Positions 11,825 through 17,400 of a stretch of DNA of 17,427 nt are shown piece after piece. The notes under the pieces were generated by a model. It was not told the origin of the DNA. It worked only from the letters and a program-made list of their open reading frames with translations, and did not search any database. The stretch is from NCBI RefSeq assembly GCF_003334305.1, contig NZ_QOWS01000040.1; one strand, written 5' to 3'. The position numbers and the translations under genes are program-made. How positions within the stretch are numbered: the stretch's first letter is position 1; every line of letters starts with the position of its first letter. The DNA comes from Escherichia coli (lineage in GTDB: Bacteria > Pseudomonadota > Gammaproteobacteria > Enterobacterales > Enterobacteriaceae).

Positions 11825-13294
11825 ATGCATATCGATTCGACTGAAAAAAATAATAAACAAAAGTTGGGCTTGCTTGCGCTAACATCCATTGTCGTGAGCT
11901 CGATGATCGGCAGCGGCGTTGACGGACTCCCCCAGAATATGGCGGAGAATTCTGCCGTGGGCCCGGTGGCGATAGCATGGATAGTCTGTGGTATCGGCAT
12001 GTTTTTCATCTCCAGAACTTTTATCGTGCTGTCAAACATTAGACCTGATCTCCAGTCAGGAGTTTATATGTATGCCCGGGAAGGGTTCGGCCGATTTACG
12101 GCATTTAACGTCGCCTGGGGCTACTGGCTGATGACTATATTCAGCAACGTCGCCTTTGCCATTATGGTGATGGATACGCTGAATTATTTCTTACCAGGTG
12201 ATTTCAAGGGAGGGAACAATATTCCTTCCGTTATCGGTGCCTCTTTGCTGATATGGGGATTCAACTTTTTAGTCCTCTCCGGTACCCGCATTGCCGGGTC
12301 GATTAACATCGTCGGCACGCTGGCCAAACTGATCCCGCTGGTGGCCTTTATTATTATTCTCATGCTGTTTATGAAGTACACCACGTTCGCAGATAACGTC
12401 TGGGGGCACAGCGCGAGTAAGGCCAGTCAGGACCTAGGCTCTATTTTCTCACAGGTAACTTCACCGCTTAGCGTGGCACTCTGGAGCTTCATCGGCGTTG
12501 AGGGGGCTGTCGCTCTTTCCGGTCGGGCCAAAAATAAACGCGACGTGGGTAAAGCCACATTAATTGGCTTCGTTGTATCACTGATTATCTGTCTGCTGGT
12601 CTCCATCCTACCGTTTGGCGTGCTGACTCAACATGAGCTCAGCGCAATTCCAACCCCATCCACCGCCGGTATTCTGAAGATTGTTGTCGGTGAATGGGGG
12701 AAGATTATGATTATCTTGGGGGTGCTGATTTCGGTGCTTACCAGCTGGCTGGCGTGGACCATCATCTGCGCCGAACTGCCTATGGTGGCCGCGCAGAACG
12801 GCACATTCCCGAAACCGTTCAGCAAAAAAAATGTGAAGGGTTCGGCCTCGGTTTCGCTTTATATAAGCAGTGCGTTTATGCAAATCGTCGTACTTCTGGT
12901 CTACTTTTCTAACGATGCCTGGCTTGCAATGCTGGCTATCTCTACCCTGACCGTTTTACCTGCGTATTTAATGACCACGGCATACCTGTTTAAACTATGT
13001 ATTAGCGGCGAGTATGCCAGCTATACCACGAATCACAGCCGCAGCGCCGCGCTGGTCAGCAGTATTATCGGCTTTGTATTCTGCCTGTTTATGTTCTACG
13101 CCAGTGAAATCAAATATCTGGCGATGGTTCCGGTGCTGCTTACGCTGGGCGTGCCCCTGTTTATCTGGGCAAGAAAAAAAGACGATCGCGCAGATAAAAT
13201 ATTTACGCTACGCGAACTGGCATTTTTTATTTTACTGCTGGTCCTCGACATCATTGTTTTTATTCTACTGCATTATAAAACGATACATTTTTAG
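11825..13294 (+). CDS. APC-superfamily basic amino acid/amine antiporter, ArcD/YdgI-like (paralog 1)
   Basis: The 489-aa protein is hydrophobic throughout. The N-terminal KLGLLALTSIVVSSMIGSGV.GLPQN motif, ..REGFG.F..FN.AWGYWL.. and ..GVEGA..LSGRAKN..DVGKAT.. parallel my recollection of E. coli YdgI/ArcD rather than AdiC/CadB/PotE. A weak SD (AAGAG) lies 7 nt upstream. Confidence 0.85.
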   Translation: MHIDSTEKNNKQKLGLLALTSIVVSSMIGSGVDGLPQNMAENSAVGPVAIAWIVCGIGMFFISRTFIVLSNIRPDLQSGVYMYAREGFGRFTAFNVAWGYWLMTIFSNVAFAIMVMDTLNYFLPGDFKGGNNIPSVIGASLLIWGFNFLVLSGTRIAGSINIVGTLAKLIPLVAFIIILMLFMKYTTFADNVWGHSASKASQDLGSIFSQVTSPLSVALWSFIGVEGAVALSGRAKNKRDVGKATLIGFVVSLIICLLVSILPFGVLTQHELSAIPTPSTAGILKIVVGEWGKIMIILGVLISVLTSWLAWTIICAELPMVAAQNGTFPKPFSKKNVKGSASVSLYISSAFMQIVVLLVYFSNDAWLAMLAISTLTVLPAYLMTTAYLFKLCISGEYASYTTNHSRSAALVSSIIGFVFCLFMFYASEIKYLAMVPVLLTLGVPLFIWARKKDDRADKIFTLRELAFFILLLVLDIIVFILLHYKTIHF

Positions 13295-13398
13295 TCCAGA
13301 TTAATTCACAGCAAGTTAAGGTGACGATAATGTCTGTTTCTTGGGCATGACATCCTCACAGTTAAATACTATCTGAACAGTAACAGTGGAGACACCTA

Positions 13399-15768
13399 AT
13401 GAAATTTAACCACAATCTTTTATTTATTTCCTCACAATATCTTGATGGCGACAACCCTTCGCAGCAGGTACTGGAAGAGCTTCAAACCGAACTCGCGGAA
13501 CGCGGTTTTAAAATTCATATCACGCACCAGATCTCTGATGGATTAAAAATCATCGAAAAAAGCCCCCAATACAGCGGGATTGGTTTTTACTGGGAGCCAG
13601 ACAATCCGACCTTTGCAGAAGAGCTACAGCACTTTATCAGCATATTCCGCAAAAGAAATGCCACGACGCCGCTGATAATTTTCTCAGAACAGAATATTAC
13701 CGATCGTATCCCACTCGACGTCTTAAAAGAGGTCAGCGAATATGTTTATCTGTTCTCTGAATCCGCAGCCTTCACTGCCAATCGACTGTACTCCTTAGTC
13801 CACCGCTATGCGGATAAGCTTCTTCCTCCCTACTTTAAAACCCTTAAGGACTTTACCGAGGACGGTGACTATTACTGGGACTGCCCGGGGCATATGGGGG
13901 GAATGGCCTATCTGAAACATCCTGTTGGCATTGAGTTCATTAACTTCTTTGGCGAAAACATGATGCGCGCTGATATTGGCGTGGCTACCGCGGAGATGGG
14001 GGATTATCTGATCCACGCCGGACCGCCTAAAAAATCGGAAGAAATTGCGGCCCGACTGTTTGGCTCTGATTGGACCTTCTACGGTGTTTCCGGCTCATCG
14101 GGGTCGAACCGTATTGTGGCCCAGGCTGCGGTTGGCGCAGATGAAATTGCCATTATTGACCGAAATTGCCACAAGTCACTTAATCATGGCCTGACCTTGT
14201 CTCAGGCAAGGCCGGTTTACCTGAAACCTACCCGCAACGCGTGGGGGCTGATTGGGCCTATCCCGACCGGACGCCTGAAGAAGGCCAGTATTGATGCGCT
14301 GGTGGCAAACAGCCGACTAGCATCTGGTGCGGTCAGCCAGTCCCCGTCCTACGCCGTGGTAACCAACTGCACCTATGATGGCTTCTGTTATAACGTGAAC
14401 GATGTAGTCAGACACCTGGGTGAAAGCGCACCGCGCATCCATTTTGATGAAGCATGGTATGCCTATGCGCGTTTCCATCCGCTATACCAGAGTCGCTATG
14501 CAATGGACGCGGAGGAAACGCCAAATCGTCCAACCCTATTCGCCGTACAGTCCACCCATAAAATGCTGCCCTCACTCTCCATGGCCTCAATGATTCATGT
14601 GAAGAAAAGCGATCGCGCGCCGCTTAATTTCGATGACTTTAACGATGCCTTTATGATGCACGGCACGACCTCACCCTACTACCCGATCATTGCATCAATT
14701 GATGTGGCAGTAAGCATGATGGAGGGTGAATCCGGTTATTCGCTTGTGCAGGAGTCAATTGAAGAAGCGATTGCCTTCCGTAAAGCCGTGGTCAGCGTCA
14801 AGCGCCAGCTCCAGGAGCAGGAAGGTGGTGACGCCTGGTTCTTCGATGTGCTTCAGCCAACCGAAGTGCAGGACAGCGATTCTGGGCAGCGATACAGTTT
14901 TGAAGAGGCACCCGTATCGCTGCTGAGCCACAGCGCCGACTGCTGGTCGCTGCGCTCCGGTGAGCGCTGGCACGGTTTTGCCGATGATGATCTGGTCGAA
15001 ACCAACAGTATGCTCGATCCAGTAAAAGTGACCCTGACTTGTCCAGGGATCGGCCCGAAGGGAGAATACCAGAAAAACGGTATTCCGGGATATTTGCTGA
15101 CCCGTTTTCTCGATGACCGTCGCATTGAAATTGCCCGTACTGGTGACTACACCGTGCTGATCCTGTTCTCCGTCGGCATCACCAAAGGCAAATGGGGAAC
15201 TCTGATTGAAAGCCTGCTGGCCTTTAAAAAGCATTACGACAATGACGATCTGGCCACAGATGCTATCCCGTCGCTGAAAGCGCATTCTCCACACTACGAC
15301 ACGCTAACCCTCAAGGAGCTATGTCAGATAATGCATGAAAAAATGGATGAGCTGGAGCTGATGTCGCATATCAACGACGCGGTAAACACCGATCCGGAAC
15401 CAGTTATGACCCCGGCAGAAGCCTATCAGAAAGTCGTACGCTACAAAACCGAGCATATCCGGCTGGATGATTTTAGCGGCAGAATTGCCGCCAGCATGCT
15501 CGTCCCATATCCCCCAGGCATTCCTGTACTGATGCCGGGCGAACGGATGCCGCAAGGTAACAAGGGCATTATTGGCTATCTGCGCGCCCTGCAGGAATTC
15601 GATAAGCAATTCCCAGGTTTTGAACATGAGATCCAGGGCGTTAACGTCGATGAAAACGGGGACTTCTGGGTCAGAGCGATTGTGGAAGAAGAACGCGATG
15701 GGCAGTCGCTACCCGGCCACATAACCTTTAAACGCCAGGTCTCTGGTATTAAAAAGGGCCGCCAGTAG
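13399..15768 (+). CDS. Fold-I PLP-dependent Orn/Lys/Arg decarboxylase with N-terminal wing domain (AdiA/CadA-like), substrate unknown
   Basis: The 789-aa ORF has a GGAG SD 7 nt upstream. It shares motifs with biodegradative decarboxylases: PGHMGG, DRNCHKS, VVTNCTYDG, HFDEAWYAYARF, the PLP-lysine motif STHK (K388, nt 14560-14562), TTSP.Y and YPPGIPVLMPGE..FPGFEHE. The first 130 aa or so resemble the CheY-like wing domain. Confidence 0.9.
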   Translation: MKFNHNLLFISSQYLDGDNPSQQVLEELQTELAERGFKIHITHQISDGLKIIEKSPQYSGIGFYWEPDNPTFAEELQHFISIFRKRNATTPLIIFSEQNITDRIPLDVLKEVSEYVYLFSESAAFTANRLYSLVHRYADKLLPPYFKTLKDFTEDGDYYWDCPGHMGGMAYLKHPVGIEFINFFGENMMRADIGVATAEMGDYLIHAGPPKKSEEIAARLFGSDWTFYGVSGSSGSNRIVAQAAVGADEIAIIDRNCHKSLNHGLTLSQARPVYLKPTRNAWGLIGPIPTGRLKKASIDALVANSRLASGAVSQSPSYAVVTNCTYDGFCYNVNDVVRHLGESAPRIHFDEAWYAYARFHPLYQSRYAMDAEETPNRPTLFAVQSTHKMLPSLSMASMIHVKKSDRAPLNFDDFNDAFMMHGTTSPYYPIIASIDVAVSMMEGESGYSLVQESIEEAIAFRKAVVSVKRQLQEQEGGDAWFFDVLQPTEVQDSDSGQRYSFEEAPVSLLSHSADCWSLRSGERWHGFADDDLVETNSMLDPVKVTLTCPGIGPKGEYQKNGIPGYLLTRFLDDRRIEIARTGDYTVLILFSVGITKGKWGTLIESLLAFKKHYDNDDLATDAIPSLKAHSPHYDTLTLKELCQIMHEKMDELELMSHINDAVNTDPEPVMTPAEAYQKVVRYKTEHIRLDDFSGRIAASMLVPYPPGIPVLMPGERMPQGNKGIIGYLRALQEFDKQFPGFEHEIQGVNVDENGDFWVRAIVEEERDGQSLPGHITFKRQVSGIKKGRQ

Positions 15769-15786
15769 GCGGGGGAAAGAACAATA

Positions 15787-15812
15787 CCGTCGGATCGCCT
15801 GCAATCCGACGG
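15787..15812 (+). other. Intercistronic stem-loop between the decarboxylase and transporter 2
   Basis: CCGTCGGAT-cgcctgca-ATCCGACGG forms a perfect 9-bp stem starting 19 nt after the decarboxylase stop. No T-run follows it, so it is more likely an mRNA processing/stability or partial-attenuation element than a full terminator. Confidence 0.4.
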
Positions 15813-15842
15813 CAATATTATAGAATAGCTGAGGGAAACGTT

Positions 15843-17342
15843 ATGGCAGAGCAATCTTCAGATGTAAAAAATAGTGACAATAGCGCCGGAGGACATAAGC
15901 TGGGGCTTATATCCCTCATCGCTATTGTCGTTAGCTCCATGCTGGGAGGCGGCGTTTTCAGTCTGCCGCAAAACACGGCGGCCTCTTCTGCACTAGGGCC
16001 AGTAATCATTGCATGGATTATTGCCGGGATCGGTATTTATTTTATCGCAAACTCCTTTCGCGTACTATCAGATCTGCGCCCGGACCTTCAGGCTGGAGTG
16101 TATATGTATGCCCAGGAAGGTTTTGGTTCCTTTATTGGCTTTAACGTCGCCTGGGGCTACTGGCTGATGACCGCATTTGGCAACGTTGCCTTTGCGGTAA
16201 TTTTAATGGATGCTTTTAATCAGTTTATGCCGGGGGTTTTTACGGATGGTAATAATCTGAACTCCATTATCTGCGGCTCAGTGCTGATCTGGGGCTATAA
16301 TTTTCTTGTTCTGTCCGGGACGAAAGTGGCCGGATTTGTTAACACCTTGGGAACCATCGCCAAGCTCGTCCCTCTGATCCTATTCGTATTACTGCTGGGT
16401 GTGCTGATCGATTATTCGGACCTGTTTAAAAATTTTTGGGGAGAATCACCCGCGATCCTCAGTGGCAACGGAAATGACGCCGCACCAGTATCGCTGCTGT
16501 CTCAGATTCTGGCACCGATGACCGTAACGCTCTGGGCCTTTATTGGCGTCGAGGGAGCGGTTGTTCTATCCGGACGTGCCAAAAATAAACAGGACGTAGG
16601 GAAAGCCACACTGATCGGCTTTCTGCTGGCGCTAATTATTTATATGTTAATGTCCATTCTGCCGTTCGGTGTAATGCCTCAGGCAGAACTAGCGCAGGTC
16701 AGTAACCCCTCTACCGCAGGCGTGCTCGCCCACGTTGTCGGTCAGTGGGGCGACTGGCTGATGAGCGCGGGGCTGATTATTTCTGTTCTGGCCGGCTGGC
16801 TTGCCTGGACCATGCTATGCGCTGAAATACCGATGGTAGCAGGACAGAAAGGCGCTTTCCCGCGCGCGTTTGCCCGAACGAACAGTAAACAGGCGGCCAA
16901 TGTGTCACTGTGGGTTAGTAGCTTTGTGATGCAGGCGGCCATGTTACTTGTTTATTTTTCAAATAATGCTTGGACCACCATGTATAATATCAGTGCGCTG
17001 ATGGTTGTTCCGGCCTATATTACCACCACGCTGTATCTGACCAGTATTTGCAGAAACGGAAAATATGATCAGTATGCAAAAAAAGGCCGCAGGCTGGCTT
17101 TGTCCAGCGGTGTTTTAGGCTCGCTATTCTGTCTGTTTATTCTTTACGCCAGCCAGATTGAGTATGTTGCATTAATTCCTATCCTGTTGACCTGTGGTCT
17201 GCCGGTCTTTATCTGGTCAAGAAAAGAAAAAAATGATGGTCAGCCGATATTTACCAAAAAAGAGCTGATTTATCTGATTATGCTGTTGCTGTGCGATATT
17301 ATCGTCGTTGCCCTGTTTATTGGTGGATATTTAAAGGTATAA
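15843..17342 (+). CDS. APC-superfamily basic amino acid/amine antiporter, ArcD/YdgI-like (paralog 2)
   Basis: The 499-aa ORF has a GAGGG SD 7 nt upstream. It aligns end-to-end with paralog 1, with well over half of positions identical by eye. It carries the canonical TM1 motif SSMLGGGVFSLPQN. Confidence 0.88.
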   Translation: MAEQSSDVKNSDNSAGGHKLGLISLIAIVVSSMLGGGVFSLPQNTAASSALGPVIIAWIIAGIGIYFIANSFRVLSDLRPDLQAGVYMYAQEGFGSFIGFNVAWGYWLMTAFGNVAFAVILMDAFNQFMPGVFTDGNNLNSIICGSVLIWGYNFLVLSGTKVAGFVNTLGTIAKLVPLILFVLLLGVLIDYSDLFKNFWGESPAILSGNGNDAAPVSLLSQILAPMTVTLWAFIGVEGAVVLSGRAKNKQDVGKATLIGFLLALIIYMLMSILPFGVMPQAELAQVSNPSTAGVLAHVVGQWGDWLMSAGLIISVLAGWLAWTMLCAEIPMVAGQKGAFPRAFARTNSKQAANVSLWVSSFVMQAAMLLVYFSNNAWTTMYNISALMVVPAYITTTLYLTSICRNGKYDQYAKKGRRLALSSGVLGSLFCLFILYASQIEYVALIPILLTCGLPVFIWSRKEKNDGQPIFTKKELIYLIMLLLCDIIVVALFIGGYLKV

Positions 17343-17372: not shown

Positions 17373-17400
17373 TGCCGCCTTTTAAACAAGAAGGGCGGCA
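17373..17400 (+). terminator. Candidate hairpin downstream of transporter 2
   Basis: TGCCGCC-(14 nt)-GGCGGCA forms a 7-bp GC-rich stem about 30 nt after the stop. The loop is long and no clear T-run follows, so terminator function is uncertain. Confidence 0.3.

Follow-up and report, generated by a model that had tools for sequence, protein, structure and literature searches.

A transporter-decarboxylase-transporter cassette of Escherichia coli as a candidate amino-acid decarboxylation and antiport module

In a 17,427-nt stretch of Escherichia coli DNA (assembly GCF_003334305.1, contig NZ_QOWS01000040.1; hereafter the window), three adjacent genes, here called T1, D and T2, encode a pyridoxal phosphate (PLP)-dependent decarboxylase, D, flanked on each side by a putative antiporter. 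This cassette is probably (about 0.72) a module for amino-acid decarboxylation and antiport that is self-contained, has spread horizontally and is of one general kind with adiA-adiC, cadBA, speF-potE and gadBC. Six results obtained directly bear on this reading: the gene content, the intact catalytic residues, the fold of D, the co-conservation of the genes, the separation of D as a subfamily and the difference in its substrate pocket.

A decarboxylase between two paralogous transporters

The three open reading frames (ORFs) are co-directional on the + strand of the window and separated by spacers of 104 bp (T1-D) and 74 bp (D-T2). Shine-Dalgarno (SD)-like motifs precede all three starts: AAGAG for T1, GGAG for D and GAGGGA for T2. 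RefSeq carries the three genes in identical frames in strain CFT073 and other E. coli strains, under the generic names 'basic amino acid/polyamine antiporter' and 'Orn/Lys/Arg decarboxylase'. The GC content of the cassette is 48.7%, versus 58.0% for the fecIRABCDE genes (235-7780) of the same window. The first-pass annotation had described three co-directional genes with these gaps and with SDs of their own, AT-richer than the fec DNA, and had seen in them a wing-domain fold-I decarboxylase between paralogous transporters of the ArcD/YdgI branch. All of this was borne out, both by the ORF list and by the protein comparisons that follow.

D matches three Pfam domains, OKR_DC_1_N (the wing, 7e-16), OKR_DC_1 (6e-145) and OKR_DC_1_C (3e-46), all above gathering scores. 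Its identity to E. coli AdiA is 38.8%, to CadA 36.1% and to SpeF 31.6%, and its scores fall below every NCBIfam equivalog cut-off: 739.9 bits versus 1167 for the AdiA model (NF011603), 621 versus 968 and 560 versus 1056 for the lysine decarboxylase models, 429 versus 794 for the ornithine model NF010092, and 425 versus 1310 for the SpeF model TIGR04301. With these values D is not a near-identical orthologue of AdiA, CadA or SpeF, in keeping with the first-pass claim of an undescribed system, and a full-text literature search found no description or functional study of the cassette. The best PDB match of D is Providencia stuartii Adc (E=1e-190). Its AlphaFold model (mean predicted local distance difference test score, pLDDT, 84.6) gave TM-scores of 0.79-0.90 to AdiA and LdcI, AdiA being the nearest solved structure (0.85-0.90); the target-normalised scores from Foldseek were 0.88-0.90 for AdiA and 0.86-0.88 for lysine decarboxylases.

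Residues H258, D350, W353, S385, H387, K388 and T423-T424-S425 of D correspond to LdcI H245, D330, W333, S364, H366, K367 and T398-S400. Because all PLP and catalytic positions are conserved, as they are in every D-clade member aligned, D should be an active enzyme. An identity matrix and a neighbour-joining tree grouped it with proteins of about 790 aa from many Proteobacteria (60-87% identical), and this group joined a clade from Acidobacteria, Verrucomicrobia and methanogens that is 52-55% identical to D. The combined group is about 39% identical to AdiA, roughly as distant from it as AdiA is from CadA (35%). D thus appears to represent a subfamily without prior characterisation within the wing-domain fold-I Orn/Lys/Arg decarboxylases.

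The gene context of the clade about 50% identical to D (Acidobacteria, methanogens) gave no clue to a substrate. No T1/T2-like transporters were found among the neighbours, and the recurrent ones (GH20, MFS, SIS, M20 peptidase and group II decarboxylase genes) were uninformative. In Methanosarcina and relatives (L020:2753-8427, L021), the D homologues (52%) are preceded on the same strand by an M20-family peptidase gene and a group II PLP decarboxylase gene, so that two different decarboxylases stand in a row.

T1 and T2 are 55% identical to each other over 483 aa. Both match Pfam AA_permease_2 (1e-45 and 3e-47, respectively), and the only NCBIfam model they pass is that of the APA subfamily, the basic amino acid/polyamine antiporters (TIGR00905; 488 bits for T1 and 493 for T2, cut-off 409). 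They stay below the cut-offs of the ArcD model TIGR03810 (442 and 450 bits versus 591), of AdiC (146-155 versus 574), CadB (112-113 versus 585) and PotE (102-112 versus 409), and of the histidine-histamine antiporter equivalog. Identity is 37-38% to E. coli YdgI, versus 29-31% to AdiC and 22-26% to CadB and PotE, and the ArcD/YdgI exchangers are the nearest transporter branch. Unlike those exchangers, T1 and T2 adjoin a decarboxylase gene and not arginine deiminase genes: no arc genes are annotated beside the cassette in two E. coli records or among the called genes of three loci with Pfam tables, and none recurs across the other loci.

Both transporters retain the equivalents of AdiC Y93, N101, W202, E208, W293 and Y365. 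They differ in the first transmembrane segment (TM1), where T1 orthologues invariably have S-M-I-G-S-G-V-D, with Ser at AdiC position 100, and T2 orthologues S-M-L-G-G-G-V-F/Y, with Gly at that position. The Asp that ends the T1 motif stands where YdgI, T2 and AdiC have an aromatic residue (Phe/Tyr). Since each type has its own motif and its own orthologues, the pair is, as judged from these alignments, anciently diverged and separately conserved, and not a recent duplicate. In Lactococcus, ArcD1 and ArcD2 are duplicated ArcD exchangers whose specificities have diverged.

The substrate pocket of D and the arginine alternative

In the cryo-electron microscopy structure of Hafnia alvei LdcI with a lysine analogue, the ε-ammonium pocket is formed by T149, S181, S183 and E526 (PMC12091041). 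Residues aligned to these four positions were taken as pocket signatures. The signature was T-S-S-E in the lysine enzymes (LdcI, the LdcC-like enzyme of a Providencia plasmid, E. coli LdcC (5fkz) and P. aeruginosa LdcA) and C-C-A-E in SpeF. It was A-G-E-T in the arginine enzymes, that is AdiA of E. coli, Salmonella and P. stuartii (A159, G191, E193 and T571 in E. coli numbering, with a role in arginine binding inferred by homology with the LdcI pocket). Within the D clade, 109 of 116 full-length homologues had C-G-A-A and four had C-G-S-A, and four homologues of a 'far' clade had A-G-S-A.

The pocket of D itself (C162, G194, A196, A579) differs from that of LdcI at 4/4 positions and shares two of four with SpeF (C162, A196). 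Both positions at which the known enzymes carry an acidic residue are Ala in D: the AdiA-type Glu (E193), present in AdiA of E. coli, Salmonella and P. stuartii, is replaced throughout the clade, and so is, in D, the LdcI Glu that binds the omega-ammonium (E526). Since both acidic positions are Ala and the pocket matches no known signature, the specificity of D would not be transferable from AdiA, LdcI or SpeF, and another substrate is a realistic possibility. This unlikeness to all three known specificities strengthens the case for an undescribed system. Since another member of this Pfam family turned out to be a glutamate decarboxylase, unexpected specificities are realistic in it; most of its sequence clusters carry no annotation (2026, PMC13506015). 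The substrate is probably a cationic amino acid, though the pocket bears no arginine, lysine or ornithine signature. Taken further, D would have a novel specificity, other than Arg, Lys or Orn, and T1-D-T2 (with a porin in some species) would be an unrecognised amine-forming, proton-consuming system with distinct, non-redundant antiporters; this fuller proposal is tentative, and we give it somewhat less than an even chance.

Alternatively, the cassette could be a second arginine-to-agmatine acid-resistance system equal to AdiA/AdiC, with redundant Arg/agmatine antiporters, in which only the gene order is new. AdiA is the best match of D both by sequence and by structure, several databases automatically name the D homologues 'arginine decarboxylase', ArcD-branch transporters handle arginine, and position 580 of D is Arg, like R572 of AdiA, where CadA and SpeF have Lys. 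The likeness extends to the general design, in which an APA-family exchanger goes with a PLP decarboxylase (wing-domain fold-I, about 750-790 aa), and to identical catalytic residues. However, identity to AdiA is barely above that to CadA, the score lies far below the AdiA cut-off, and the conserved Glu193 of AdiA is Ala in the D clade. The cassette also differs from adiA-adiY-adiC in having two ArcD-branch antiporters instead of one AdiC, in its transporter-decarboxylase-transporter order and, in E. coli, in having no AraC-type regulator; moreover, adiA-adiY-adiC is already present in K-12 E. coli. Providencia rustigianii and the Proteus vulgaris group, both of which have the module, are reported as negative in Moeller arginine, lysine and ornithine tests. 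On balance we regard a redundant arginine system as rather unlikely.

Earlier work on the 'Adc' group found it to be patchy and its genomic context to be non-conserved, and saw horizontal transfer and 'possibly hidden paralogy' at work in it (Carriel et al. 2018, PMC6257575; Jessop et al. 2022, PMC8983666). The D clade fits a hidden paralogue of that group, but one with a strictly conserved context and what looks to be a distinct pocket.

Conservation, variants and parallels of the module

Among loci drawn from GTDB species representatives and other assemblies, D is preceded by a T1 orthologue (59-76% identical) in 14 other loci, and T2 orthologues (72-83%) follow it. The T1-D-T2 order occurs in Klebsiella sp., Citrobacter sp., Providencia rustigianii, Serratia, Proteus, Alcaligenes, Candidimonas, Commensalibacter and five Bordetella species, and on a Providencia rettgeri plasmid; it thus spans Enterobacterales, Alcaligenaceae and Commensalibacter, that is several families and two proteobacterial classes. 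Decarboxylase and exchanger genes are adjacent and co-conserved in more than 15 species, and the module is chromosomal in P. rustigianii and the Proteus vulgaris group. The first-pass claim depended on the genes being conserved together, and they are. Flanking genes otherwise vary from locus to locus, and T1-D-T2 therefore moves as a module.

Inspection of the variants revealed a difference between the two transporters. A D-T-T arrangement was found in one alphaproteobacterial metagenome-assembled genome (MAG) and in Ignatzschineria, a D-T arrangement in a second alphaproteobacterial MAG, Lentisphaeria, Crenobacter and a Salmonella IncFIB plasmid, and in Acinetobacter the order is D-T2-porin-T1, with T1 inverted. 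Because single-transporter loci carry the T2 type, D-T2 would seem to form the core, to which T1 is an accessory. An AraC-family gene upstream of the module in Proteus was considered as its regulator and rejected as a conserved part, its only counterpart being in Alcaligenes (37%); a linked regulator is absent in most other species.

A FomA-family porin-like gene (about 345 aa; NCBIfam NF049910, up to 405 bits; no Pfam match) lies directly 3' of T2 in Providencia, on chromosome and plasmid, and in three Bordetella, and is adjacent to T2 in Acinetobacter. A tblastn search found no porin remnant in E. coli. Chlamydia aaxABC encodes a porin, an arginine decarboxylase and an antiporter, and the porin-bearing relatives of the cassette likewise have a decarboxylase together with a channel for the outer membrane and an exchanger for the inner one; unlike them, however, AaxB is a small pyruvoyl enzyme and AaxA an unrelated porin, and the E. 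coli cassette has no porin gene.

Two Providencia plasmids of the same replicon cluster offer a direct comparison. One carries T1-D-T2-porin (L086:8001-14628), and P. rettgeri pVCSW10.1 (L087:6001-12302) carries a T1-type gene followed by cadB-ldc and the same porin. The porin DNA of the pair is 90% identical and the T1 region 68%; the T1-type transporter beside cadB-ldc has 58% protein identity to T1 and the same TM1 Asp. It looks as if the decarboxylase/antiporter core had been swapped inside a frame of T1 and porin. Since a T1-type transporter here accompanies a complete cadB-ldc pair, this speaks for a task of T1 that is distinct from that of the main exchanger. With cadBA and speF-potE the cassette has in common the enzyme family and the presumed logic of precursor/product exchange, but D has Ala at the LdcI E526 position, and its identity to CadA and SpeF, like that of T1 and T2 to CadB and PotE, is low (36%, 32% and 22-26%, respectively).

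The closest parallel in layout is the histidine decarboxylase (HDC) cluster of Morganella, whose order is hdcT1-hdc-hdcT2-hisRS (PMC12072131); Morganella-type hdc loci were also recovered from metagenomes, with HDC 98% identical. The first-pass annotation had pointed to this cluster, and the likeness of layout stood: in both, one decarboxylase lies between two co-directional paralogous antiporters, 54% identical in HdcT1/HdcT2 versus 55% in T1/T2. The parts are unlike: HDC is a group II enzyme of 378 aa, unrelated to the wing-domain fold-I D, and HdcT1 and HdcT2 belong to the AdiC branch (39-42% identical to AdiC, 25-28% to T1/T2). A common origin of the two transporter pairs was rejected on this ground. 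With HdcT1/HdcT2 in the AdiC branch and unrelated decarboxylase folds, the layout with paralogues of about 55% identity arose independently, at least twice. A layout that evolved at least twice points to a functional reason behind two exchangers.

Other decarboxylase genes were met on plasmids. Group II HDC genes, 76-79% identical to Morganella HDC, are present on conjugative IncF/IncI plasmids of K. pneumoniae and E. coli (L094:5001-6143, L095:5001-6143); no T1/T2-type transporters were found at these loci, nor any adjacent transporter in the plasmid gene tables, which are incomplete. On a Photobacterium damselae plasmid (L089:1795-4657) and on Enterobacter cancerogenus pUPC1 (L093:6989-9789), a gene for an ArcD-branch antiporter (44-46% identical to T1) is directly followed by one for a protein of 427-452 aa with PSDC and PS_Dcarbxylase domains and a GGST motif, that is of the pyruvoyl, phosphatidylserine-decarboxylase-like type. 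Next to the Enterobacter pair lie evgA, a YfdX-family gene and genes for an efflux pair of the EmrA/EmrK family. The two genes look like a further, undescribed pairing of an amino-acid decarboxylase with an antiporter.

Setting in E. coli and proposed function

The cassette was present, at a coverage of at least 80%, in 495 of 5,426 complete E. coli genomes (about 9%), essentially always on the chromosome, and 493 of the 495 carriers have it intact, with an identity of at least 99%. Carriers include the uropathogen CFT073, in which it lies within the selC island, and the full window is 100% identical in E. coli chromosomes such as those of strains A7 and 2021CK-01784. Coordinates of the features are given in Table 1.

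Table 1. Features of the cassette, its signals and its neighbours (positions in the window unless a locus number is given)
Feature	Position	Strand	Description
T1	11825..13294	+	489 aa; APA-family antiporter, ArcD/YdgI branch, 'accessory' type, TM1 S-M-I-G-S-G-V-D
D	13399..15768	+	789 aa; wing-domain fold-I PLP decarboxylase; PLP-Lys K388; pocket C162, G194, A196, A579; E577 nearby
T2	15843..17342	+	499 aa; APA-family antiporter, ArcD/YdgI branch, 'core' type, TM1 S-M-L-G-G-G-V-F/Y
T1 upstream region	11630..11824	+	195 bp, AT-rich; best sigma-70-like site and weak SD AAGAG
T1-D spacer	13295..13398	+	104 bp; SD GGAG for D; mini-ORF MSVSWA inside
D-T2 hairpin	15785..15814	+	GC-rich, 13-bp stem
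Hairpin 3' of T2	17373..17400	+	TGCCGCC...GGCGGCA, without U-tract
Divergent IS1-family element, frameshifted transposase	10866..11629	-	Left boundary; RefSeq 'IS1 family transposase, frameshifted' at the equivalent place
FomA-like porin genes	L005:10085-11137, L008:10100-11122, L085:12992-14017, L086:13603-14628		Providencia, Bordetella, Acinetobacter; 'hypothetical' in plasmid records

Insertion sequences (IS) lie on both sides of the cassette. The left IS1-family element, with terminal inverted repeats GGTAGTGCATCC... and ...GAGGCATCACC, stops at about 11629, which leaves 195 bp to the start of T1, and gave no blastn match (E<=1e-10) to the IS1 copies flanking the region; the right-hand IS1 starts at 17428, one base beyond the window end and 85 bp after T2. 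CFT073 and 2021CK-01784 have in common a block from window position 9583 to about 18197, which comprises an IS3 fragment, a truncated alcohol-dehydrogenase gene, the IS1-like element, T1-D-T2 and IS1. In 2021CK-01784, inverted IS1 copies that are 98.4% identical bracket fec and the cassette in an 18-kb segment, with an IS1F upstream (L002:7230-8000). An IS1 composite transposon was considered and rejected: the outer 9-mers differ, no 9-bp target-site duplication is present, and the element next to T1 is a different, divergent member of the family. Of the first-pass view that the cassette is bounded by an IS and mobilisable, the boundary therefore stands, with an IS on both sides, but no target-site duplication supports movement as one unit, and we see no evidence in the sequence that fec and the cassette transposed together.

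The surroundings hold other genes. The fecIRABCDE ferric-citrate operon is complete, and between fecE and the cassette (8319-10291) lie remnants, namely a short ORF with an NAD(P)-binding domain, a frameshifted IS3-family transposase gene and the truncated alcohol-dehydrogenase gene. In the selC island of CFT073, a few kb upstream of the cassette (L001:2599-9622), annotated defence genes encode a KAP P-loop NTPase, QatC and QatD of the Qat anti-phage system, and a SLATT-domain protein paired with a nucleotide-binding-domain protein.

Putative expression signals were also inspected. The best promoter-like site upstream of T1 is TATACA-16-TATAAT (11681-11708, 10/12 matches), in a region where GC content drops to 0.40 (11501-12000), and the total number of such sites is not above that in shuffled sequences. 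T1 5' regions did not align between species. A GC-rich hairpin lies between D and T2 in 12/12 species examined, with position and structure kept and sequences unrelated, which suggests a partial terminator or a 3'-stabilising, mRNA-stability element that would set the D:T2 ratio. The T1-D spacer contains a mini-ORF of six codons (MSVSWA, 13330-13350) with an SD of its own (AAGGTG) and no counterpart in other species, which is probably due to chance. A leader peptide or riboswitch was rejected, since small ORFs in this spacer are not conserved and an Rfam scan gave no family above threshold and one sub-threshold match only.

Such a setting raises the possibility that in E. coli the cassette is inactive passenger DNA, a remnant caught between IS elements by the fec island and cut off from its native promoter, regulator and porin. 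IS elements on both sides, the IS3 fragments and truncated gene around it and the very AT-rich upstream region would all fit, and so would the lack of a regulator and a porin, given that relatives have the porin and that Proteus and Alcaligenes have an AraC-family gene upstream. However, all three ORFs have their full length, every record listed annotates them as intact, the cassette has been retained by 495 genomes that come from unrelated lineages and hosts, the SD motifs, the promoter-like site and the position-conserved hairpin are still present, and most other species have no linked regulator either. We therefore consider decay to passenger DNA improbable.

As an active module, the cassette would very probably work by the familiar combination of substrate/amine exchange and proton-consuming decarboxylation. 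The inferred parts of this scheme are the substrate, the way in which the exchange runs, the contribution to acid resistance and how T1 and T2 share the work. T2, the constant companion of D, would bring the amino-acid substrate in and the amine product out. D would remove the alpha-carboxylate in a PLP-dependent reaction, with one cytoplasmic proton consumed per turnover; its solved relatives AdiA and LdcI are decamers. T1 would probably carry out a second, non-redundant exchange, for example of a different charge form, in another pH range or for product export. In several other bacteria, the FomA-like porin would let substrate and product pass the outer membrane. The net outcome would be alkalinisation and a membrane potential.

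The same proteins could instead serve polyamine or amine production for signalling, biofilm or nutrition, with transporters for uptake or export and not for pH homeostasis. The roles of LdcA, LdcC and SpeC are metabolic and not tied to acid stress (PMC6257575), P. stuartii Adc is possibly biosynthetic (Jessop et al., PMC8983666), and no acid-sensing regulator is linked to the cassette. Yet a survey of these enzymes describes no linked antiporter for metabolic paralogues such as ldcC, while the inducible genes odcI and ldcI are partnered by potE and cadB (PMC6257575). Tight linkage to two exchangers, sometimes with a porin, fits catabolic precursor/product exchange, and the isoelectric point of D (5.37) is acidic like that of AdiA (5.12). 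A purely productive role thus has little likelihood.

Several points weigh against the proposed module or its parts. The pocket argument rests on alignment to four positions from one LdcI-inhibitor structure (PMC12091041), and the invariant E577, two residues before A579, might replace the absent acidic residue; the AlphaFold monomer is unreliable in the active-site loops (155-167 and 190-207, pLDDT <50), and E577 lies in coil, so that its orientation cannot be read. The roles given to T1 and T2 follow solely from the order of the genes and the differences in motifs. The near-identity of the E. coli copies is a sign of recent spread and not of selection, and with an IS 195 bp upstream of T1 and no linked regulator or porin, the E. 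coli copy may be poorly expressed or silenced. The full-text literature search gave no expression or phenotype record for the cassette.

Amino-acid decarboxylase/antiporter pairs are the chief inducible acid defences of enteric bacteria and the chief bacterial source of biogenic amines in gut, urine and spoiling food. What is new here is an enzyme subfamily with an apparently distinct pocket, a conserved, specialised pair of ArcD-branch antiporters, an optional dedicated porin, and a wide, unnoticed distribution that includes uropathogenic E. coli; the module is common in E. coli, Morganellaceae, Bordetella and Acinetobacter, yet annotated only generically. If the substrate is indeed other than Arg, Lys or Orn, about 9% of complete E. 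coli genomes would carry an unrecognised system, which would occur also in Proteus, Providencia, Hafnia, Serratia, Bordetella and Acinetobacter, with a distinct two-antiporter design that evolved independently in the Morganella histamine cluster. The cassette also lends itself to asking why certain decarboxylases retain two diverged exchangers, which can equally be asked of the histamine cluster.

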